Shown in pieces: positions 4,175 to 22,947 of a stretch of 27,914 nt of DNA. The translations under genes and the position numbers were made by a program. Positions within the stretch are counted from its first letter, which is position 1. Each line of letters starts with the position of its first letter. The notes beneath the pieces were generated by a model. That model did no database searches. It had not been told where the DNA came from and saw only the letters and a program-made list of their open reading frames with translations. This DNA comes from a virus. Lineage: Duplodnaviria > Heunggongvirae > Uroviricota > Caudoviricetes. The stretch lies in IMG/VR virus record IMGVR_UViG_2913118216_000009. The stretch is one strand, 5' to 3'.

Positions 4175-5748
4175 TATGCGAGTCTCACTATGTAGTTAAA
4201 TACGATGTTTTTAACGGTCGTTTCTTCATTGCCCGACGCGGCGACGGTAATGGTGTGACTATGTGCGCCTATTGCTACGGTATGAGAGTGAGCTCCAATT
4301 CCTACAGAATGGCTATGTGCGCCAATCCCTACAATATGAGCATGGTTGCCAGCCAAATCCGTATTACCTGTTGTTACGTTATCGCCGCCCTGACCTCTAT
4401 TGATATCTCCGTTTTGAGTGGCCTGCCCCTTAACATATGTATGAGTATGTGCACCAGTTGTATCGGTTGTTTTGGTTCCGTAATCAAATGTGCTCACAGC
4501 TCTAGTGCCGTAGTCAAAGGATGATGTTGACTTCGTCCCCAGATCGGTACTGAATGCACTAGCAGTGTGGGCATGGGATTTATTGCCATCATCTTCATAG
4601 GACAAAACTGCACGGCCATCAGGTTTTCCTTTGATCGTCTGGCGGCGCATATCAGGAAGAACACCCGATGGGTATACAATAGCCAGTCGCTGGTAAGCCA
4701 CTGGATCAAACACCTGCCCCTGCATGATTGCGTGACCCGCTGGTGGAATATCAGTCGGCCAAGGAAGTGGTACTCCAACCGGCACAACATCGCTAATGCT
4801 TAAGACCGCCAGCTCACCCAGCCCAAGATTTTTTCTGGCTTCCGCCTTGTCATTGATATCGGCAAGGTTTGCATCCTTACGCAAAAAATCGCTGCTGGCC
4901 TGTTGATCGCTCAGACTGCCTTTTGGCCTTAAATCCGTGATGTTGCCATCCACATCAATGCTGGCCACCGCAAATACAAAATGCTGAATACCGTTCTGAA
5001 CATAATCAGTCAGATTTTCTACAACCGTGACTTTACTCTGTACACTCCAGACACTGCTCAGAATCCCTGTCCAGCACACATCCAGCCAGACTTTTACCGA
5101 CATTGTCGTCACTGTAATATCCTGATTCGCATCCAGTGACACACGCAGTCCAGCCACATACCCTGTGCCTTTCGTGACATAAAACTGATTGCCGGTTTTG
5201 GCTACCAGATACCCGTTACCAAAAAACGCCGCCGCGCCATAAATATCTGTATTTTCCAGACGCTGGCGCTCATCAATTCCGGCCAAACGTGCAGTAAAAT
5301 CAATCTGCCAGGTTTCAGCGGGCGTATTAATCCCAGTTTCTGTTTGTGCACCGTTGTACTCCATCAGAAACGAGCGGGTCAGCACGTTCCCCTGTTGCCC
5401 TTCTTTTGTTTTCAGTTTCTGCTGTGCTGGTGCATGGACAATCATTGCCAGCGTACCGCTAGCCTTATTGAGCAGACCAATCCAGTTAAAACTGAAATCC
5501 CCCACATCTGCGCCCAGCACTACGGAATAGACCACCCTATTTTCATCCACCACACCGGTACGGGTAACAGCTTGCCGGTGAACAATCTGTGCTGTCGGGG
5601 GCAACCCTTCATTGCGATCAACAGGGATATCCGCGTTTAAATCCGGCACACTGGCAAAAACAAATTCGTCCAGTAGTACCGGTTCACCTGTTGCGCCCTG
5701 CTGTGCTTTCCAGTTTTCAAACGCCAGTGTGATGGCTGTCTGTGACAT
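4174..5748 (-). CDS. Tail fiber protein (receptor-binding; P2 gpH / Mu S-like N-terminal domain, repeat-rich C-terminal tip)
   Basis: 524-aa ORF; conserved-looking N-terminal fiber domain; C-terminal part has tandem peptide repeats (SxFDYGT x2 and GIGAHSH[ST]V x3-4, i.e. HxH motifs); followed by a Tfa chaperone. Confidence 0.8.
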
Positions 5749-7577: not shown

Positions 7578-7867
7578 AACCGCTTCTGACTTTCTTCACT
7601 GATTTCCACCGAACCCGGCACAATACGTTCATCATCTTCAATCAGTAATTCCATGCGGGTAAAAATATCCGCTCTCATTGTCGGGCTACGTTCGGCTATT
7701 AATTCCGTAGCCAACCCACTTTCAATAATGGAATGAATAATGTCCTGTCCGATACTTTGTCGGTTATTACATAATTCAGGTTCATTACCGACATTCAGAA
7801 CAAAATCGCCGCCCTGAATCAGCAAATCAATATAAAGAACATTACTCATGCACCAAGCTCCTGCCAT
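7520..7867 (-). CDS. Small baseplate protein (gp25/GPW-like); probable true start near 7849
   Basis: About 110 aa, immediately after the tape measure gene with an ATGA start/stop overlap, and immediately before the J-like gene. Confidence 0.45.
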   Translation of the reverse strand: MAGAWCMSNVLYIDLLIQGGDFVLNVGNEPELCNNRQSIGQDIIHSIIESGLATELIAERSPTMRADIFTRMELLIEDDERIVPGSVEISEESQKRLWVTASTYDFGGISAQVDL

Positions 7868-9813
7868 TCCATAAGCTGGAGTGGAGAAAATGCTTCTTTG
7901 GTATGGAAATGCACTTCGCCAATTTTCCGGCTGTTATCGATTACGGATGTTGTGTTTCTGCTGATTGTTTTACTGATACCACCATTATCCACACCTTTTA
8001 AATCGCCCCCCGTAGACAGCGTATTACCAGTTAATGGCTGTAAGGTTTCACTGGCCAGAGAAATATCCACGCCGGGAATTTCATTCAGTTTCTGAACAAT
8101 CCAGTTCCACGACTTAAGAAATCCCTCTTTGATTGAGTTCCAGACAATATCAAACAGCGACATAATACCGGTGGCCATTCCCTTTAATGCCTCAGATGGT
8201 GAAAATCCTGTCAGCATAGAAATAAAACTGCTCCATCCATCACTGACATATTGCCAGGCTAAAACAAAGATCCCCGCTAGCCATTTCACTACGGCAGCAC
8301 ATGCCTGGAAGGCTTCGGTATTCATCACCGATGCTTTTATCGTGTTCCAGTGCTTAACCAGCAGATAACAACCAGCAACAAGCAGCGCAATGGCACCAAT
8401 CACAAGCAGGATTGGCCAGCTCATCAAATTGATACCAATTCCGGTCATCATTGCGGCCATGCGTACCGCCAGTAACGCGCCGCGTAAAAACTTCAGCGTG
8501 GTATTCCAGGCGATTACCGCCATTTGCGCCAGCCAGACAGTGGCCGTGTAGATTTTCGTAATCGCCGTTAGCGCCACCCAGATCCCGCGCAATCCCATCA
8601 TGATGAATCTGGATACCCCCATCACGATATTGACCACCGCACCCACGGCGGCAAAGCTCAGGAGTGCCATCGACGCATAACCAATCACACGGGCAATGTT
8701 AGGAAATAGCTGCATCCAGCGGGCAAAGGTCTGCCCCATATCAGCCAGGCGATTCAGAACCGGATACAGCACAGGGATCAGCGTCAGCCCGATCACGGTC
8801 TGAATGGCTTTCAGGATTTGCACAAAGCGATCCCACGGCTTAACCATTTTTTGTGCCATTTCCTGGGTACGCTTCAGACCGTCCGCACCGCCCAGTTCGG
8901 TGATGTTCCGCTGAAGTAACGCGACATTGCCGTAAAGCTGTTTAACCACTGCCGAACTGTCACCAAAGGCTGCATCCAGTTCCGCCTGGGCTTTCAGGTT
9001 CCCTTCAAGGCTTTTGCCATATTTGCCCTGCAACTTGATCAGCATTTCAGGCATGGACAGCATTTTGCCGGTGGAGTCAGTAAAGGACAGCCCCAGCTTT
9101 TTAGCGCCATCAATCGCACCGGTCATAAACCCTTCATAGGCGCTGCTGGCTTCCGTTCCCAGTGTCCGCTGAAGTTGCCCCAGCACGGCCAGTTGTTCAT
9201 CCAGCCCTACGCCGTAGTTAGTCCCGACACCGCGCGCGCCTTCCATCAAATCCTTGATAGTGGCCATTTCTGTGCCAAAGGTTTTGCGCATATAAACCAT
9301 CTTGCCTGCCAGTTGCTCGGCAAATTCAACCTTGCCCAGTCTGGTGGCATCGGCGGAAAAGTTACCGAACATCTGCCCCATAAATTCCGCCGTGTCCGCC
9401 GCTGTGGACTTGAGCGCAAAAGCCAGGGTATTGGCGACTTTCGTCACCTTCGGCAGTTCATTACCCGTCAGTCCGGCAATGGAAGTGTTAATATTTTCCG
9501 TGGATTTAACAAACTCCACCGCACTGGCACCATAGGTTGTACTAAAGCGCAGGGCATCACGCTGAACTGTCTTAAGTGCTGAATCATCAATACCTTTTGC
9601 GGCGGCATTATTCAGCGCGTCATACATTTCAATTGCCGGTGATAAAGCACTTTTGATCTCCATCCCGATACCTGCCAGCGCCAGAACGCCACCACCGATC
9701 TGCATAAAGGCTGCTTTTGATTTTTCCGCAAAGCTGGTGACGTTACCCTGCACCTGTTTTAACGGGCGGGATAATTTATCAATCAGGCTTAATGTAAAAT
9801 CTAATTGTTTCAT
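7846..9813 (-). CDS. Tail tape measure protein
   Basis: 655-aa ORF; Ala/Gly-rich with coiled-coil-like N-terminal half and several long hydrophobic segments in the C-terminal half; directly downstream of the chaperone gene. Confidence 0.75.
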   Translation of the reverse strand: MKQLDFTLSLIDKLSRPLKQVQGNVTSFAEKSKAAFMQIGGGVLALAGIGMEIKSALSPAIEMYDALNNAAAKGIDDSALKTVQRDALRFSTTYGASAVEFVKSTENINTSIAGLTGNELPKVTKVANTLAFALKSTAADTAEFMGQMFGNFSADATRLGKVEFAEQLAGKMVYMRKTFGTEMATIKDLMEGARGVGTNYGVGLDEQLAVLGQLQRTLGTEASSAYEGFMTGAIDGAKKLGLSFTDSTGKMLSMPEMLIKLQGKYGKSLEGNLKAQAELDAAFGDSSAVVKQLYGNVALLQRNITELGGADGLKRTQEMAQKMVKPWDRFVQILKAIQTVIGLTLIPVLYPVLNRLADMGQTFARWMQLFPNIARVIGYASMALLSFAAVGAVVNIVMGVSRFIMMGLRGIWVALTAITKIYTATVWLAQMAVIAWNTTLKFLRGALLAVRMAAMMTGIGINLMSWPILLVIGAIALLVAGCYLLVKHWNTIKASVMNTEAFQACAAVVKWLAGIFVLAWQYVSDGWSSFISMLTGFSPSEALKGMATGIMSLFDIVWNSIKEGFLKSWNWIVQKLNEIPGVDISLASETLQPLTGNTLSTGGDLKGVDNGGISKTISRNTTSVIDNSRKIGEVHFHTKEAFSPLQLMEWQELGA

Positions 9814-10261
9814 TCATTGCCTTTAAATGCTTTTGCCACACCATTGGCCACGGCTATTCCCGTATATTCCCAGTGACGATTGTCCAGCCAGATAGCGGCG
9901 GCGATATCATCAACGGAATCCTGACCATGTGGTAAATAATGACGGCGTAGAATTAAATATTGTTCGAGTCCATTTATTTCAATTTCATGGACTCGACTTG
10001 TCAGTTTTTTACTTCAATTTCCAGTTCAGGCGCATAAATATCATTTACTTTGCCAACCAGTTGAAGTGCAGCACCCGGACGTTTTAATACTTCACAAAGT
10101 GAGGCTTTACTTTCAATCGCAACAATTCGTGTCAGATAGTTATGCGCAGGAGCAACCTTATTGTCCATTGCCATTTCATTAATAAATTTATTGTAGGCAG
10201 TCTGGTTTGGTTCAAAAATAATTTCAACGCCACAAACACACAGTTTAATTTGTTCCATCAA
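9779..10261 (-). other. Predicted -1 frameshift fusion product of the tail assembly chaperone (gpE+E'-like)
   Basis: By my reading the -1 frame is open for about 77 codons from the slippery heptamer, ending about 35 nt inside the tape measure ORF; a 10-bp stem hairpin (TCGAGTCCAT...ATGGACTCGA) begins 7 nt after the heptamer. Confidence 0.45.
10001..10261 (-). CDS. Tail assembly chaperone (P2 gpE analogue), short form
   Basis: 86-aa ORF immediately upstream of the tape measure gene; ends ...GAA GTA AAA AAC TGA, placing an A_AAA_AAC slippery heptamer at the stop codon; TTG start in the track with an ATG as the second codon. Confidence 0.55.
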   Translation of the reverse strand: MMEQIKLCVCGVEIIFEPNQTAYNKFINEMAMDNKVAPAHNYLTRIVAIESKASLCEVLKRPGAALQLVGKVNDIYAPELEIEVKN

Positions 10262-10544
10262 TAACTCTCTCTCTTAAAATAATTTCACCCACTAACTGAT
10301 TATGACGAGCAGCACACTGACCATATAAATCAAGATAAATCGTCAGTAATTCCGCTGAGTCTTTTCCTGTCGCACCATTGAGGCGCGGCAACTGCGTGGC
10401 ACATTTAGTTTTCAGATTTTCCTGATAACGCACGTTCGGTACCGGCTGCGGCGCTGTTGTACATGCTGACAAACTCATCAGACAGGCAACGATTAGTAAA
10501 AACGGGCTTAAGTATTTCCGTGCGTATCTCTCGCGGTGCCACAT
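10245..10544 (-). CDS. Outer-membrane spanin lipoprotein (Rz1/LysC-like); probable true start near 10478
   Basis: Signal-peptide-like hydrophobic segment followed by a lipobox (LSAC) and a Pro-rich mature region; overlaps the 3' end of the i-spanin gene in another frame. Confidence 0.55.
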   Translation of the reverse strand: MWHRERYARKYLSPFLLIVACLMSLSACTTAPQPVPNVRYQENLKTKCATQLPRLNGATGKDSAELLTIYLDLYGQCAARHNQLVGEIILRERVIDGTN

Positions 10545-10743
10545 TTTTTAACGCCTCCAGTTTATCTTCCAGCGCTCTGGCCGAATCACTGGCAATACCC
10601 TGCATTGCTTTTCGCGATTCATTACCGGCCACCTGCGCCGCTGTATTGATTGCCAACTCTAAGCTATCACGCCGCCAGTCAGCGGTTAGCCAGCCCCAGA
10701 CAAACGCCAGCGCCACCACAACCAACCACTGCCCGCTGCTCAT
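10405..10743 (-). CDS. Inner-membrane spanin (Rz/LysB-like)
   Basis: 112-aa ORF with one N-terminal transmembrane segment (WLVVVALAFVWGWL) and a charged, coiled-coil-like periplasmic part; directly downstream of the endolysin gene; overlapped by the o-spanin gene. Confidence 0.55.
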   Translation of the reverse strand: MSSGQWLVVVALAFVWGWLTADWRRDSLELAINTAAQVAGNESRKAMQGIASDSARALEDKLEALKNVAPREIRTEILKPVFTNRCLSDEFVSMYNSAAAGTERALSGKSEN

Positions 10744-11201
10744 CAGCGCACCCCGTTATGTTCCAGGCTGAAATGATTGCCATCCGGCCTGGATTTGAAG
10801 CGCCCGCCCCAGACTCCACCTAGAGATTCCCAGAACTCCCCCAGCGGCAGATAATCTTCTGTGCGAGTTTTGTACTGATCATTCACGAACAAATTAAAAT
10901 CTACAGCCAACCGCTGGGTGTGCAGACTGTTAGAAGTACCACTGCCTTTCTTCTCATTCAGCGCAGCCTGTTCTGGTGTACGGTAAGCCTCACCAAATGT
11001 CAGTCGGTAGCCATGTTCTTCTGCCCAGTGGATCAGACTGGCCACCATGACTGTGAATAATTGCTGTTTTTCACTCAGGGTCATTTGTCTTGCTCCCGTT
11101 CTGCTTTCCCGCTGCACGTCTGCGCAGCCACACTTCCACCGCCTGATAACCGGCAATCCCCAGCGCCGCCCCCAGCCCCTGAATGGCCAGCGGGCTGGCA
11201 T
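10743..11201 (-). CDS. Endolysin, peptidase M15 family (L-alanyl-D-glutamate peptidase-like); probable true start near 11084
   Basis: Contains HWAEEHGY...LHTQRLAVDFNLF...DGNHFSLEH, matching the zinc-binding H..D..H arrangement of M15/VanY-type peptidases; sits between holin and spanins. Confidence 0.7.
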   Translation of the reverse strand: MPARWPFRGWGRRWGLPVIRRWKCGCADVQRESRTGARQMTLSEKQQLFTVMVASLIHWAEEHGYRLTFGEAYRTPEQAALNEKKGSGTSNSLHTQRLAVDFNLFVNDQYKTRTEDYLPLGEFWESLGGVWGGRFKSRPDGNHFSLEHNGVR

Positions 11202-11373
11202 CCGGGATCTGAATCAGCACCGCCCCGGCCACTACTGAAACCAGACTGCCCAGGATCACGCGACCAGCAAACAGGCGCGGCGTGATGGGGTCATTACTGG
11301 TCAGCACATTGCCGATGGCAATCAATGCGCCAATGATCAGCAGTGAATAAAGGCTCTTTTCATGCTCCTGCAT
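11071..11373 (-). CDS. Holin (three predicted transmembrane segments)
   Basis: 100-aa ORF with three hydrophobic stretches and a basic C-terminal tail (RRRAAGKQNGSK); immediately upstream of the endolysin gene. Confidence 0.55.
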   Translation of the reverse strand: MQEHEKSLYSLLIIGALIAIGNVLTSNDPITPRLFAGRVILGSLVSVVAGAVLIQIPDASPLAIQGLGAALGIAGYQAVEVWLRRRAAGKQNGSKTNDPE

Positions 11374-11382
11374 CCCTGCCCC

Positions 11383-11838
11383 TTATCCGATCAGGTTTTC
11401 TGTGGCTTCCGCTTCCAGATACGGCACACCGTTGATGTTGACGAATTTCGGACTGGTCACGAAATATTTGATTTTGTGCGTGGTCACACCGCCACCTTTC
11501 GGATCAATATCCAGCAGGTTGCTGACCTGCAATTTATTGCCGAACGTCTCCACCTTCATTTCTTCGCTACTGGCTTTGGCATAGAAAAGAAAATCAAGTG
11601 GTGGAAGCCCACGCCATGAACCCGCTGCACGGGCTTTGGCTGTCAGCACCTGAAGTGTTTTTGAACTGACTTCAATTTCCCCCTCAGCGGCAACATCGCC
11701 ATCCACATACCCATCAGGGACGCCACGCGTCTGGGCGACAGCGCTGTTATCCGTAATATCGAGCGTGATTTTCTCGATATGGATCAGATCGCCGTCCATA
11801 TAGGTGTCAAACGACATACCCGAAATACGTTTGGTCAT
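11383..11838 (-). CDS. Tail tube protein
   Basis: 151-aa ORF directly downstream of the putative sheath gene with overlapping stop/start; size typical of myovirus tube proteins. Confidence 0.5.
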   Translation of the reverse strand: MTKRISGMSFDTYMDGDLIHIEKITLDITDNSAVAQTRGVPDGYVDGDVAAEGEIEVSSKTLQVLTAKARAAGSWRGLPPLDFLFYAKASSEEMKVETFGNKLQVSNLLDIDPKGGGVTTHKIKYFVTSPKFVNINGVPYLEAEATENLIG

Positions 11839-12962
11839 GCTATAGCCTCCAGACTGGCATCCAGTAACAGGCTGATGGTGATTTGCAGTGGCACTTCCCA
11901 GGTACGTACCACAATGTAAATATCAACTGCCTTTTTGTTCTTCCAGACAATGGATACATCACCATCCTGCGGCGGCTTCACTTCTCCGGGAAATGACACC
12001 CCATTAATGCTGGCCGCAGTAGACATTTCGCGCAGTGGACTGGCGAACAGTGTCTGATGTGCGGCGATACTTCCTGGCGTGCTATTCAGCGAACGATCAG
12101 CGATTTTACTGATAGCCAGCAAACGAACACGGCGGGCAGCTTTATCCGCGACGCGCAAAGTTTCAATCGACTGATAATCGCCGCCCTCAACGTCCAACGT
12201 GCGGCCATCTGACCAGTAAAAACCGTCATAATCCGGGTACCACATTGGCACACTGAAACGCTGTGCTTCCAGCGCCTGAAGTGTGGCCAACTCAAGAACT
12301 TCTCCGGTACCATCAACCGGCATTTCGTCACTGCCCAGATTCATCAGCGCACCGGTTTTAACCCTCGCCGGACTATCTGCAATAGTCACCATACAGCTAC
12401 ACAGACGACCAGCCAGCACACCCGGTTCATTTCCCCACAGCCGGGGAACCAACTGAACCGACTTTTCTGCAATCCCATCCTGAAGAGTGGCCAAGCGAAC
12501 CAAGTAATCCGCCTGGGCTTCTTCGTCCTGCACTCCCTGTGCGGCCAGAATGAACCACACCCAGCGGCCATACTTTGAAATCAGGGTGGTTCGTAACGTC
12601 ACTGCCTGATTTACTTGCGCTTTAGCAGTGACATCGTCAGACAGCACCACGCCTTCCACAGAGCACACCACCTGCGCGGCTAAAACCGCTTTCACCCAGG
12701 CGTCCGCCTCCGCGTCAGCTGGCAGGACGTGAATGACCCCCCACCAGTTCTGGCCAGCGTTCGCCAGCGCAGCCAGAACATCATTTTTCAGCGGGCTGGC
12801 TTCCTCGCCCAGCAGTGAATCAACATCACTCTGGGCATTCACCGCCAGTGTTTTCCCCACATTTTTGGTACCCGTGCCGATAAACAGCAGTGTGCGTTCC
12901 ACCTCATTGGTTTCACCCATCAGCTGATTTACCTGGTTTACGGTCACAATTGGCCAGGTCAT
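11835..12962 (-). CDS. Tail sheath protein
   Basis: 375-aa ORF immediately preceding the tube gene and coupled to the upstream morphogenesis gene; size close to P2 FI-type sheath proteins. Confidence 0.5.
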   Translation of the reverse strand: MTWPIVTVNQVNQLMGETNEVERTLLFIGTGTKNVGKTLAVNAQSDVDSLLGEEASPLKNDVLAALANAGQNWWGVIHVLPADAEADAWVKAVLAAQVVCSVEGVVLSDDVTAKAQVNQAVTLRTTLISKYGRWVWFILAAQGVQDEEAQADYLVRLATLQDGIAEKSVQLVPRLWGNEPGVLAGRLCSCMVTIADSPARVKTGALMNLGSDEMPVDGTGEVLELATLQALEAQRFSVPMWYPDYDGFYWSDGRTLDVEGGDYQSIETLRVADKAARRVRLLAISKIADRSLNSTPGSIAAHQTLFASPLREMSTAASINGVSFPGEVKPPQDGDVSIVWKNKKAVDIYIVVRTWEVPLQITISLLLDASLEAIA

Positions 12963-20925: not shown

Positions 20926-22947
20926 CTAGACCCACCCCGGCCATAACTCGTTTAATGGCTCGTTTTGAATCTCTTTAAGCCACCCATTACGGTAAACCAG
21001 TCCCCCTTGGCCAAACATCAAACCACTACCCCGTAGGAGAATGGCTATTTCTTCATTAGAACCGTTAAAACCCCGACTGCATAATTCCAGTTTTAACCGT
21101 CTGAGGATTCCCCCCTCCGTACAGTTATTGACAGAACTCCAAGGGGCGGCGTTGCCGCCAGAAACCCCCGCCTCCGCTGGCGCTTCGGCCAACTTCGCAA
21201 CCTTTTGCCACTTAACCAGACGGGTGCAAACTTCCGAATCAGGAACCAAAGGAGAATAAACCCCCTGTACGCGCTGCACGTCCTCTGCGTACTCGTTGCC
21301 CTGTTCCGTAATTTCATAGGCCAGACGAACAACCAGATCACGGCGGGCAATCAGTGCGCCACCCTGTGCTTGGGTGTATGCAGCCCAATCGCCAACATCA
21401 GCAGCGGCCAGAACCGCATCCATTCTGCGATCTGTCAGCACCAGATCCCGCAACCGACGCAGCTCACGCCAGACGGTTACCGGCGCACCACCAATCTGCT
21501 GAAACTGACGAATGCGCCAGCGTGAAGCCCATGCAGAAACGGACTTAGCCATATCACGCAGGTTTTCGCCGGTTTCTTCGTCCTGCTCACCATCCAACGC
21601 AAAACCATCAATATTTTTTGAAATGTATTTCGCGATGTAGCCCGTGGCTGAACCTTTGTCGGGATCGATAGCTTCAACGTGAAAACGTGCCTTAAGCGCC
21701 TTTTCAGATTGCAGTTCCTCAGAATCGGTAATTCTGGCGTGATAGCAAAGAATATCGCGTACCGTGTCCACGTCCTGCAGACGCATAAAAAGCAACATAT
21801 GCCAGTGCGGTGTCCCGTCATGGTGTGGCTCAACAACCCGAAACCCAAATACATGAATACCCGCACGCGAGATCGCTGCGCGTGCTTTTGCCCATACGCC
21901 GCATAAATAGCGCTGGGTATCCTGCGGTGTACATCCATCCCATTGCGATACAAAGCCACCTTTGCTGTGCACTGCGTGGAAACGTGATGGCGCGGTGATG
22001 GTGTAAAACTCACCGGCCAGCCCTTCTTCATTGGCCATATCTTCAAACCCTCGCATTCTTACCATTAGTTCACATCGACGGATCGCCGGATTTGCAACGC
22101 TGCGGTGCACCATGCTGTCCAGTGCAATGCGCAGCCCCTCATCATTCAGCAGATCAAACTTTTTAAAGAACTCCAGATTCCGCTTTTTCTGGTCTATCCA
22201 TTCGTCCAGTGTTTTGCGGGATACATAAGCGCTGGCCGCTTTTTGTACCTGTCCCACCGCGATGGCCATATGTTCGCGCTGCATATCACGCGCACGTTTA
22301 AGACGTAGGTACCACCATTCCGGCGCCATCATGCGCAGTATCCCGGATTCCGCCTTACGCATTTCCAGTTGACCTTCATTGGCCTCATGTTCAGCCCAGT
22401 ACGGCGGCTGGTTATTCAGCATCAGGCAACCCGCGCAAAGATGGCGGTATGATTCCAAGGTGCGGCGATGCAGCTCTCTGGCGTCGTCAGTGCCGGAGTC
22501 AAACTGTTCGGTGAAGTCATAAAGTGACTGGGAAATCCAACCAGATACCTGGCCAGCCAGTTTTTTAAGATCAGGACGGTCTAGTGACGGCAAGCGCTCC
22601 AGCGACTTACCAAAAGGAAGATCGGCAGCGTCAGCGGCCAGCGAGTAACGCGCAGCCACTTTGCGCAGACGTGGCAATACACTCCCGCCGATAGTCTGGC
22701 GCAGGAATGTATTGGCACAGCGACGCCCGTCACGACCAGCAAACAGCTTTTCGTAACGACGGCCAAAATACCCGGCTAACCAGTCGGGTATCTCATGAAG
22801 GTACCGGGCTCTCCATTCATAATCCTGCGGATTTACAGCCCACAAACGGCGTTCTGTGATTGTCGCGTCTGCCGGTATGCAAGATGCGAAAGTTTCACGC
22901 CGCCACGTATCGACAGCATAGAAGTGTTCCTTTATAGCCAACATCAT
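20926..22947 (-). CDS. Replication initiation endonuclease, P2/186 gpA family (rolling-circle initiator)
   Basis: 673-aa ORF; contains ...HVEAIDPDKGSATGYIAKYISKNIDG... resembling the active-site tyrosine region of GPA-type proteins; last large gene of the early operon. Confidence 0.8.
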   Translation of the reverse strand: MMLAIKEHFYAVDTWRRETFASCIPADATITERRLWAVNPQDYEWRARYLHEIPDWLAGYFGRRYEKLFAGRDGRRCANTFLRQTIGGSVLPRLRKVAARYSLAADAADLPFGKSLERLPSLDRPDLKKLAGQVSGWISQSLYDFTEQFDSGTDDARELHRRTLESYRHLCAGCLMLNNQPPYWAEHEANEGQLEMRKAESGILRMMAPEWWYLRLKRARDMQREHMAIAVGQVQKAASAYVSRKTLDEWIDQKKRNLEFFKKFDLLNDEGLRIALDSMVHRSVANPAIRRCELMVRMRGFEDMANEEGLAGEFYTITAPSRFHAVHSKGGFVSQWDGCTPQDTQRYLCGVWAKARAAISRAGIHVFGFRVVEPHHDGTPHWHMLLFMRLQDVDTVRDILCYHARITDSEELQSEKALKARFHVEAIDPDKGSATGYIAKYISKNIDGFALDGEQDEETGENLRDMAKSVSAWASRWRIRQFQQIGGAPVTVWRELRRLRDLVLTDRRMDAVLAAADVGDWAAYTQAQGGALIARRDLVVRLAYEITEQGNEYAEDVQRVQGVYSPLVPDSEVCTRLVKWQKVAKLAEAPAEAGVSGGNAAPWSSVNNCTEGGILRRLKLELCSRGFNGSNEEIAILLRGSGLMFGQGGLVYRNGWLKEIQNEPLNELWPGWV

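Follow-up and report, generated by a model that had tools for sequence, protein, structure and literature searches.

Genes at the locus

The window analysed here is a stretch of 27,914 nucleotides from a virus of the Caudoviricetes (IMG/VR record IMGVR_UViG_2913118216_000009). On its minus strand, between positions 10245 and 11373, it carries four tightly coupled open reading frames, each of which matches a lysis family far above chance: a holin, an M15 endolysin, an i-spanin and an o-spanin. An HP1-type tail tube gene lies on one side of them, and the genes for the tail assembly chaperone and the tape measure lie on the other. The genes and signals that matter for what follows are these:

11835-12962, minus strand: sheath
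11383-11838, minus strand: tail tube of the HP1 Orf24 type, the upstream neighbour (PF10772, E 3e-64; 60% identity to HP1 orf24)
11071-11373, minus strand: holin, 100 aa, P2 gpY-type (class I-like), by PF04550 and PHROG 175
10743-11084, minus strand: endolysin, 113 aa, single-domain M15 (LAS-type) zinc peptidase, by Peptidase_M15_4 and PHROG endolysin families
10405-10743, minus strand: i-spanin, 112 aa (PHROG 1152 'Rz-like spanin', E 8e-35)
10245-10544, minus strand: o-spanin, 99-aa precursor of a predicted outer-membrane lipoprotein, by Pfam LysC and PHROG 2425
10554-10558, minus strand: Shine-Dalgarno sequence GGAGG of the o-spanin, 9 nt upstream of its ATG and within the i-spanin coding sequence
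10461-10472, minus strand: codons of the o-spanin lipobox L25-S26-A27-C28
10001-10258, minus strand: tail assembly chaperone, the downstream neighbour (PF10963, E 5e-34; 40% identity to HP1 orf26)
9810-10010, minus strand: -1 frame extension of the chaperone, 64 codons, with the slippery heptamer A_AAA_AAC (10010-10004)
7846-9813, minus strand: tape measure

An initial annotation of this DNA had placed a complete lysis cassette inside the tail gene cluster, and both the family matches of the four frames and their flanking genes bear this out. The chaperone ATG lies 14 nt within the end of the o-spanin gene, and the -1 extension of the chaperone overlaps the start codon of the tape measure gene through ATGA. 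The heptamer and the extension peptide are both kept in HP1, SW5, YenM_324, ev015 and ev239. Judged by homology and sequence signals, from which all functions given here are predicted, the region is an ordinary four-gene phage lysis cassette in the usual HP1/ESSI-2-type slot of P2-family prophages.

Relatives and intactness

With the Escherichia phages ESSI2_ev015, ev040 and ev129 (Quadragintavirus) the window shares about 93% identity. These three, together with Cronobacter ESSI-2, Escherichia ESSI2_ev239, Salmonella SW5 and Yersinia vB_YenM_324, have a gene order identical to that of the window: sheath, tube, holin, M15 endolysin, i-spanin, overlapped o-spanin, chaperone, tape measure. The differences between the window and its ESSI-2-type relatives are allelic only; the ev015 proteins, for instance, are 100% (holin), 98% (i-spanin), 90% (o-spanin) and 83% (endolysin) identical to those of the window. 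The cassette of YenM_324 is explicitly annotated as holin, metallopeptidase, I-spanin and O-spanin.

The initial annotation regarded the location of the cassette as a different, mosaic arrangement. This is right only with respect to P2, where, as it stated, the lysis genes lie between head and tail-completion genes (order L-X-Y-K-lysA-lysB-lysC-R-S). The P2-type order is absent from the window, in which the adaptor, terminator and completion genes (14666-12959) abut the sheath gene without lysis genes, and no lysA homologue is present. What is indeed mosaic is the content of the cassette. The position, however, is standard for the HP1/ESSI-2 branch: the lysis genes lie between an Orf24-type tube gene and a PF10963 chaperone gene, and a scan of species-representative genomes for HP1-type tail loci found an insert of at least 1 kb in this tube/chaperone slot in 68 of 72 loci. 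An open reading frame that passes the lipoprotein rule is present in the slot in 59 of the 72 loci, versus none of the 72 in a control region. Tube, lysis cassette, chaperone and tape measure is the standard, long-published order of HP1-like/ESSI-2-like Peduoviridae (PMC7312051; PMC10612066).

It might be argued that the prophage is a decaying remnant whose cassette is intact in sequence but unused, given that a search of complete E. coli genomes and species representatives gave no exact match to the window and at best 95% identity. In our opinion this is quite unlikely. All 22 late genes, as well as the terminase, portal, replication, cII-like, cox, CI and integrase genes, have full-length open reading frames, and over 95-97% of the 25,000 bases compared the window runs collinear with phages that were obtained as plaque-forming particles. 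Infectious virions of close relatives have been isolated (Mathieu et al. 2020, PMC6969025).

Holin

The holin call of the initial annotation stands. The protein covers the whole of PF04550 (Phage_holin_3_2; profile positions 1-86 of 86) with an E-value of 6e-39 and 132.7 bits against a cut-off of 25, while P2 Y scores 143.6 bits on the same model, and it matches PHROG 175 'holin' at E 2e-39. It is 54% identical to P2 gpY over 90 aa (E 4e-34). Three uncharged hydrophobic segments (7-27, 39-57, 59-79) are found in the same places as in P2 Y, with closely parallel hydropathy, and the C-terminus, RRRAAGKQNGSKTNDPE, is basic/charged. The third segment is weak and only moderately hydrophobic (KD19 1.16), so that a topology with two transmembrane domains is possible. 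The ATG follows an AAGGGG Shine-Dalgarno sequence and lies 9 nt past the stop of the tube gene.

The spanin pair and the start of the o-spanin

The ATG of the i-spanin gene has one base in common with the endolysin stop codon. Its transmembrane domain would be N-terminal, at about residues 6-21; the sole uncharged stretch is 1-21, with a KD17 of up to 1.71. The rest of the protein is charged, and probably forms a helical periplasmic domain with one conserved cysteine (C86). The N-terminus, MSSGQ, has no basic residue ahead of the transmembrane domain (relatives have MSR or MDR), and therefore the N-in topology is assumed here and not predicted by the positive-inside rule.

The o-spanin gene starts at the ATG at 10544, 199 nt downstream of the i-spanin ATG, which puts it in the +1 frame with respect to its partner. 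The overlap of the two genes amounts to 140 nt, and their stop codons end at 10405 (i-spanin) and 10245 (o-spanin). This is the overlapped architecture of spanin genes (Summer 2007; Kongari 2018), as in lysB/lysC of P2, and it agrees with the earlier description of an o-spanin with lipobox LSAC whose gene begins, in a different frame, within the 3' end of that for the i-spanin. In the dual-coding part, 10400-10499, nucleotide identity to ESSI-2 and ev239 reaches its maximum of 84-86%, which is what selection on both frames would be expected to produce.

The o-spanin matches Pfam LysC over the gathering score (E 9e-7) and PHROG 2425 at E 7.5e-31. Membrane and lipoprotein signals were judged by hydropathy and the PROSITE rule, and the o-spanin passes PS51257 at Cys28, with Thr and not Asp at position +2, which points to sorting to the outer membrane. 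The mature protein is predicted to be 72 aa long, starting from Cys28. The lipobox cysteine is kept in all eight o-spanin relatives compared. In the homologues from ESSI-2, ev239, SW5, Sasha, Paul and HP1, the Cys28-equivalent lipobox is accompanied by two more conserved cysteines, and the lipobox and the two periplasmic cysteines are conserved across o-spanin relatives at 37-90% identity, including those of ordinary curated lysis cassettes. Comparison with annotated spanin pairs is likewise favourable, as the i-spanin aligns with the curated i-spanins of Sasha, Paul and YenM_324, and the Sasha and Paul o-spanins, which keep the lipobox, have curated SPII/LipoP predictions. Cys21 (IVAC) was considered as a second candidate. 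It fits the lipobox rule but is not conserved (ISVC in ev239, AAVC in ESSI-2), and Cys28 is the predicted lipidation site, chosen over Cys21 by conservation alone.

Public records of this phage group point to a shorter product. The gene is a 'FIG01049434 hypothetical protein' with a short start in NC_049395, a 'hypothetical protein' with a short start in NZ_CP087564 and a 189-nt 'O-spanin' in OM095401; if these were correct, the o-spanin would be a small soluble protein of 62 aa starting at an internal GTG (V38), and not a lipoprotein. We consider this very improbable. The frame is open from the ATG at 10544, which has its GGAGG at 9-nt spacing, and the Pfam LysC match starts at residue 23, ahead of V38. 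The additional 37 residues constitute a textbook SPII signal; every relative keeps it, even distant ones for which curated LipoP calls exist. We therefore reject the internal GTG in favour of the upstream ATG; because the public annotations start 37 codons late, the signal peptide is lost in them. Gene callers routinely truncate overlapped o-spanins, and Kongari et al. 2018 counted 64 wrong starts and 196 missed genes (PMC6139136). The same authors described the ESSI-2 spanins as an overlapped pair and grouped the ESSI-2 o-spanin in the 9NA family.

Endolysin

The endolysin matches Pfam Peptidase_M15_4 at E 1e-10 (42.5 bits, cut-off 25) and also PHROG endolysin families. When the single sequence was compared with PDB using phmmer, two NRPS carrier-domain chains came out on top (E 0.006-0.008), a chance match to the N-terminal helix. 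For this reason a profile of 12 endolysin homologues was used instead, and it gave clean M15 matches: the L-Ala-D-Glu peptidases 8q2g (E 4e-9) and 2vo9 (Ply500, E 4e-8), together with ChiX and LysB4.

In the alignment of the 12 homologues S53, H55, D62, D101 and H104 are invariant, and the last four align with H, D, D and H of Ply500 and 8q2g. In Ply500 the metal ligands are H80, D87 and H133. Thus the H-x6-D zinc ligands, the distal His and the catalytic Asp of D-x2-H are all present in the window enzyme. The M15 assignment of the initial annotation is confirmed at its zinc-binding residues, with H55, D62 and H104 corresponding to the metal-site H, D and H of the structures. The enzyme has H-x6-D...D-x2-H and SxHxxxxAxD in common with M15 L-Ala-D-Glu endolysins (the Listeria A500 Ply500 domain 2vo9, 8q2g, the T5 endolysin and Serratia ChiX), although this likeness is detectable at the profile level only (E 4e-9). 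It is about the size of single-domain M15 enzymes and has no cell-wall-binding domain. For the PaMx43 homologue, the database record itself notes an HHpred link to the T5 endolysin. By analogy, the enzyme probably cleaves the L-Ala-D-Glu bond.

Neither a signal peptide nor a SAR domain was found in the endolysin; by hydropathy no 17-residue segment reaches KD 1.4, and the N-terminal stretch, QQLFTVMVASLIHWA, has charged residues in homologues. The protein is accordingly predicted to be cytoplasmic and dependent on the holin.

The initial annotation saw that the holin and endolysin frames overlap and that the starts needed refinement. The frame it displayed, the longest in this reading frame, encodes 152 aa from the ATG at 11201; this start would overlap the holin gene by 131 nt, over its last third, and would add an Arg/Trp-rich N-terminal extension to the endolysin. 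We give this version hardly any credence. There is no Shine-Dalgarno sequence ahead of 11201, and the Pfam and PDB matches fall entirely inside the 113-aa version. All 12 homologues, including those of Pseudomonas, Vibrio and Aeromonas phages, start at the Met equivalent to 11084 and none upstream of it, and the holin and endolysin genes of ev239 and YenM_324 have just 4 nt in common. The start is thus the ATG at 11084, with GGGAG as Shine-Dalgarno sequence 8 nt upstream and a 14-nt overlap with the holin gene.

The location between tail genes, and the fact that some P2-like tails carry lytic activities, might suggest that the peptidase is a virion-associated wall-degrading enzyme for infection and not an endolysin, but there is next to no chance of this: its gene is adjoined by, and translationally coupled to, the holin on one side and the spanin pair on the other, the protein is a bare 113-aa catalytic domain with nothing for tail attachment, its homologues sit in holin-endolysin-Rz-Rz1 cassettes of unrelated non-P2-like phages (PaMx43, PCCM_PaP002), and in sister lineages the same slot holds lysozymes experimentally shown to be endolysins (HP1, PMC7312051).

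Recombination has left a patch in the 5' half of the endolysin gene: nucleotide identity to ev015 is 70% at 11000-11099, versus 97-100% on either side. As a protein, the endolysin is closer to the versions of ESSI-2, ev239 and Enterobacter and Buttiauxella prophages than to that of ev015. An exact 40-mer from the patch had no match among 185,579 species representatives.

Expression

The cassette sits mid-way in a run of 22 close-packed late genes that extends over about 16.7 kb with gaps of at most 47 nt. Sigma-70 and terminator scans revealed no promoter-like or terminator-like site on the minus strand within 9800-11900; the overall counts of the scans were not above shuffled-sequence expectation, being below it for promoter-like sites and about equal to it for terminator-like ones. 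For the P2 late-activator motif TGT-N12-ACA, 5 occurrences were counted where about 6.7 are expected, none of them near the cassette. The four lysis genes have neither a promoter nor a terminator to themselves, lie in the middle of the late-gene run and are coupled in translation to the genes beside them, so that joint production with the tail proteins is probable. This suggestion of co-expression is based on gene packing and a simple consensus scan.

Comparison with known systems

An experimentally studied counterpart is HP1, whose gene order and lysis have been investigated (PMC7312051). Its cassette consists of hol, lys, orf25 and an unannotated overlapped lipoprotein frame (Esposito 1996; Adamczyk-Poplawska 2020, PMC7312051), and it occupies the same slot as in the window, with the tube gene (orf24) immediately ahead of it and the genes for the chaperone (orf26) and the tape measure (orf27) behind. 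In HP1, sheath, tube and chaperone are 51%, 60% and 40% identical to their window homologues. HP1 also has an overlapped i-/o-spanin pair, with lipobox LLAC, and the same chaperone frameshift site. The difference lies in the first two genes: HP1 has a pinholin (PF16080) and a Sec-exported SAR muramidase (PF00959), whereas the window has a gpY-type holin (PF04550) and a soluble M15 peptidase. Thus, from its sequence, the window system is of the canonical type, holin and soluble endolysin, unlike the pinholin and SAR-endolysin in the same slot of HP1.

The likeness to P2 consists in the gpY homologue, the membership of the o-spanin in the Pfam LysC family and the manner of spanin overlap. In P2 the cassette belongs to the head and tail-completion operon, where it lies between X and R and not after the tube, K is unrelated to M15 peptidases, and the P2 sheath, tube and chaperone (FI, FII, E) have no detectable similarity to those of the window. 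P2 further has lysA, a putative antiholin, while the window is without a counterpart; no antiholin (lysA-like) gene was found in the cassette, and the four genes leave no space for one.

O-spanins of the 9NA/Sasha/phiEco32 type (the Kongari 2018 family comprises 9NA, ESSI-2, FSL_SP-062 and FSL_SP-069) are 37-46% identical to that of the window over about 85 residues, with the lipobox Cys and the two periplasmic Cys conserved. Their i-spanin partners are just distantly similar to that of the window (23-29% identity), and the 9NA-type phages are siphoviruses or podoviruses with lysis cassettes outside any tail operon, unlike the window. The slot is conserved, and mosaicism shows in what fills it: a holin of the P2 type, a non-P2 endolysin and o-spanins of the 9NA type.

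Proposed course of lysis

We regard it as very probable, on sequence grounds, that an intact ESSI-2-like (HP1-branch, P2-family) temperate myophage has its lysis cassette in this region and that lysis proceeds in three steps. By analogy with its homologue, P2 Y, the gpY-type holin would build up harmlessly in the inner membrane, trigger at a time set by itself and form large holes. The cytoplasmic 113-aa M15 zinc peptidase would then escape and cut the peptide stems of peptidoglycan, probably at the L-Ala-D-Glu bond; the sequence itself shows the fold family as well as the metal-site and catalytic residues, and the bond specificity is presumed. Finally, the i-spanin, held in the inner membrane by its N-terminal transmembrane domain, and the o-spanin, held in the outer membrane by a lipid on Cys28, would constitute a periplasm-spanning complex. 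With the wall gone, this complex may disrupt or fuse the outer membrane and so complete lysis, as lambda Rz/Rz1 and the spanin literature suggest; the membrane signals and the gene architecture for this step are seen directly, the mechanism by analogy.

Implications

The cassette and its position are already known: descriptions exist for HP1 and ESSI-2, and both features are typical of this well-sampled lineage of phages. Beyond the quality of annotation, the finding has little significance. One practical gain is the corrected o-spanin start. In RefSeq/PGAP records of these phages the frameshifted extension of the chaperone is, in addition, listed as a small open reading frame of its own, and both annotations are easily corrected. 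The 113-aa M15 peptidase, as a compact holin-dependent endolysin, is of possible interest as an enzyme; close homologues are already public.

A wider reading can be put forward as speculation that we ourselves think unlikely to hold. The HP1-type tube/chaperone junction may be a fixed 'socket' across at least four Gammaproteobacteria orders, into which unrelated whole or partial lysis modules are swapped by recombination, the window then representing a fresh exchange of the endolysin only. The modules seen in the socket comprise a gpY-type holin with an M15 peptidase, a pinholin with a SAR lysozyme, a P2 K-type endolysin and other endolysin types. The qualitative point about the socket is already in the literature. 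If the wider reading were true and the boundaries of exchange were systematically mapped, the socket could serve as a model of how lysis timing is re-tuned without disturbing the expression of tail genes.

Lysis genes and their neighbours

Four consecutive minus-strand ORFs fill positions 10245-11373, and the match of each to a lysis family is well beyond what chance would give. The initial annotation had read them as a holin, an M15 endolysin and an i-spanin/o-spanin pair, placed between the tube gene and the chaperone and tape measure genes. Pfam and PHROG matches of the four ORFs and of the flanking genes agree with this; the observation is correct and its interpretation sound.

Cassette genes and flanking tail genes
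11835-12962, minus strand: sheath (DUF2586 / PHROG 907), upstream of the cassette
11383-11838, minus strand: tail tube, HP1-Orf24-type (E 3e-64), upstream of the cassette
11071-11373, minus strand: holin, 100 aa; Pfam PF04550 'Phage holin family 2' (E 6e-39, whole profile), PHROG 175 'holin'
10743-11084 (refined), minus strand: endolysin, 113 aa; Peptidase_M15_4 (E 1e-10), several PHROG endolysin families
10405-10743, minus strand: i-spanin, 112 aa; PHROG 1152 'Rz-like spanin' (E 8e-35)
10245-10544, minus strand: o-spanin, 99 aa; Pfam LysC 'Rz1-like lysis system protein' (E 9e-7, above gathering), PHROG 2425 (E 7.5e-31)
10001-10258, minus strand: tail assembly chaperone (PF10963), downstream of the cassette
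7846-9813, minus strand: tape measure, downstream of the cassette

The Peptidase_M15_4 match reaches 42.5 bits, where the cut-off is 25. Proper alignment of the zinc-binding residues had been proposed as a test of the M15 assignment: in an alignment of 12 endolysin sequences H55, D62, D101 and H104 are invariant, and they fall in the same columns as the H, D, D and H of solved L-alanyl-D-glutamate peptidases. The profile built from this alignment matches several such peptidases: 8q2g (E 4e-9), Ply500 (2vo9, E 4e-8), ChiX and LysB4. Because the endolysin sequence has no hydrophobic N-terminus, it should be a soluble, holin-dependent enzyme.

Membrane and lipoprotein signals, likewise proposed as a test, are present. 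In the holin, hydrophobic stretches free of charged residues span 7-27, 39-57 and 59-79 (the third being the weakest) and the C-terminal tail is basic; the hydrophobicity profile of the protein runs closely parallel to that of P2 gpY. The i-spanin has a single N-terminal hydrophobic stretch (residues 1-21). Its N-terminus, MSSGQ, carries no basic residue before the TMD, where relatives have MSR or MDR, and two Arg follow the TMD, an arrangement slightly unusual in an N-in anchor. The o-spanin N-terminus, MWHRERYARKYLSPFLLIVACLMSLSAC, satisfies the PROSITE PS51257 lipoprotein rule at Cys28. The +2 sorting rule is an established guide to lipoprotein destination; as the +2 residue is Thr, it implies that the o-spanin would be sorted to the outer membrane. 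Cys21 (IVAC) also satisfies PS51257 and was rejected; the lipobox Cys is conserved only at the equivalent of Cys28, where it occurs in all relatives compared (ESSI2_ev015, ev239, ESSI-2, SW5, Sasha, Paul and HP1). The Sasha and Paul records hold curated SPII/LipoP calls on the homologous genes. Two further periplasmic cysteines, C48 and C77, are conserved.

Gene order in related phages

The initial annotation called the arrangement different from that of P2 and mosaic. The P2 record does show the order L-X-Y-K-lysA-lysB-lysC-R-S, as had been stated, and the content is mosaic; the position, however, is usual among HP1/ESSI-2-type relatives and unusual only beside P2. ESSI2_ev015, ESSI-2, ev239 and SW5 are annotated, like the window, as sheath-tube-holin-endolysin-spanin(s)-chaperone-tape measure. 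Yersinia phage vB_YenM_324 has the same order, with its genes labelled outright as holin, metallopeptidase, I-spanin and O-spanin; HP1 is annotated in this order too. In HP1, the ORF24 tube gene is immediately followed by hol and lys, whose products have been shown by experiment to be a pinholin and a SAR endolysin (Adamczyk-Poplawska et al. 2020, PMC7312051); that study identified no spanin pair. In the HP1 genome (L002, NC_001697) we observe an unannotated overlapped ORF after orf25, at 20937-21160, which begins MQKIKIGLMAACLTMLLAC with lipobox LLAC and is likely the o-spanin partner of orf25. The ESSI-2 spanins have been catalogued as an overlapped pair, with the o-spanin in a family with 9NA (Kongari et al. 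2018, PMC6139136); our tblastn matches of the window o-spanin (9NA, Sasha and phiEco32-like phages) are consistent with that grouping.

A scan with the tube-protein alignment against one genome per bacterial species gave 80 loci, in Enterobacterales, Aeromonas, Pasteurellaceae and Pseudomonas. The chaperone gene lies downstream in 72 of them, at an interval of at least 1 kb in 68 of the 72 (median 1437 nt). An ORF satisfying the lipoprotein rule occurs in this interval at 59/72 loci, versus 0/72 in an equal-sized upstream control; a few first-listed matches are not o-spanins (the endolysin N-terminus in loci L044 and L048, for example), and genuine o-spanins are present in the loci inspected by eye. 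Enterobacterales carry a gpY-type holin, M15 peptidase and window-type spanins; Aeromonas a P2 K-type endolysin; Pasteurellaceae an HP1-type holin and lysozyme; Pseudomonas a SAR-like lysozyme or other hydrolases with Rz/Rz1-like pairs. An interval filled in 68/72 loci, with content depending on lineage, argues from sequence comparison that the lysis position is ancestral to the HP1 branch and its content exchangeable.

Four loci are exceptions to the filled interval. In Citrobacter sp. FP75 (L066, 4454-5015) a gpY-type holin stands alone there, and both endolysin and spanins are missing. The others are Pseudomonas loci: L057 (461 nt; sole content by eye, an 83-aa membrane protein), L058 (461 nt) and L061 (357 nt). 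These four may have lysis genes elsewhere, or may be tailocin-like elements. Three inspected Aeromonas/Pseudomonas loci (L032, L048 and L070, ~4447-4675) carry, between tube and holin, an ORF of 69 aa that encodes a zinc finger (paired C-x2-C motif); it is absent from the window and its enterobacterial relatives.

Phage identity and mosaicism

Escherichia phages ESSI2_ev040, ev129 and ev015 (genus Quadragintavirus, Peduoviridae) align to 95-97% of the window's first 25,000 bases at ~93% nucleotide identity; Cronobacter phage ESSI-2 is a more distant relative. The ESSI2_ev phages were isolated from infant viromes as infectious particles, with an E. albertii or Citrobacter origin suggested (Mathieu et al. 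2020, PMC6969025). The window's gene set is complete (baseplate, fibre, tail, head, terminase, portal, replication, cII-like, cox, CI and integrase), and a relative is found in ~40/5426 complete E. coli genomes, the best 95% identical. A 20-kb contig labelled 'MAG: Bacillota bacterium' (L017, JAEWTL010000126.1), with tube 99% and holin 100% identical to the window's, almost certainly comes from an enterobacterial prophage and was binned wrongly.

P2 gpY is 54% identical to the window holin, whereas P2 FI, FII and E have no detectable similarity to the HP1-type tail genes around it, and P2 K and HP1 Lys are both unrelated to the window endolysin. Against ESSI2_ev015 the holin is 100%, the i-spanin 98% and the o-spanin 90% identical, the endolysin only 83%; at nucleotide level 11000-11099 is just 70% identical, with 97-100% on either side. 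In other prophages the endolysins are 85-92% identical to the window's and the holins only 51-58%. This unevenness indicates recombination within the cassette, which is ordinary phage mosaicism. The recombinant patch within the endolysin gene extends over 10800-11099 (70-88% nucleotide identity to ESSI2_ev015, versus 97-100% in the holin and tube flanks), and the endolysin it encodes is closer to those of the prophages with 51-58% identical holins.

Expression and lysis

From 17341 to 652 the minus strand carries 22 genes with no gap above 47 nt other than the 187-nt chaperone frameshift extension, and no promoter-like or terminator-like site was found on this strand at 9800-11900. Hence the lysis genes most likely share transcription and translation with the tail genes, which would leave lysis timing to holin triggering. 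By analogy with the literature on P2, lambda, T5/Ply500 and HP1, lysis would then take the canonical three-step course: the holin would perforate the inner membrane, the soluble M15 peptidase would break down the wall, and the i-spanin/o-spanin complex would finally disrupt the outer membrane.

The apparent 187-nt gap between chaperone and tape measure (9810-10010, minus strand) is a -1 frameshift extension of the chaperone, with a slippery heptamer A_AAA_AAC at 10010-10004 and 64 codons, whose TGA overlaps the tape-measure ATG (ATGA). Heptamer and extension peptide (LT.R...IE.N.[LI][ES]Q...LR..YLPH) are conserved in HP1, SW5, YenM_324, ev015 and ev239; in public records, parts of the extension appear as small ORFs in their own right, under the names 'DUF6890 family protein' and 'hypothetical protein'. 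G+C is low at 9700-10450 (0.36-0.42, versus 0.52-0.58 on either side), spanning the chaperone, its extension and the 3' half of the o-spanin gene; a second low-GC stretch lies at 7600-8200.

Start sites

Nine nucleotides separate the tube stop from the holin ATG, which AAGGGG precedes. The overlap of the holin and endolysin ORFs had been flagged as needing refined starts, and we moved the endolysin start to ATG 11084: GGGAG lies 8 nt upstream, 12/12 aligned homologues (from enterobacterial, Pseudomonas, Vibrio and Aeromonas phages) start at the matching Met, and the 152-aa ORF from 11201, which lacks a ribosome-binding site, was rejected. The endolysin is thus 113 aa long and overlaps the holin stop by 14 nt, and its own stop shares one base with the i-spanin ATG. 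The o-spanin, as first described, starts inside the 3' end of the i-spanin gene in another frame: its ATG (10544, with GGAGG at 9-nt spacing) is 199 nt downstream of the i-spanin ATG, hence in the +1 frame, and the two genes share 140 nt. The chaperone ATG (10258) lies 14 nt within the o-spanin 3' end.

RefSeq, PGAP and one GenBank record begin the o-spanin at an internal GTG (loci L001, 6446-6634; L016, 646-834; L008, 3143-3331), giving a 62-aa product without the entire signal peptide and lipobox. The full 99-aa ORF is present in ESSI-2 (NC_047854) as a 'hypothetical protein' and is unannotated in the ev239 record.

The corrected gene starts are the sole value added by our analysis; the cassette itself is a textbook example, already known, in a known position of a known phage lineage.
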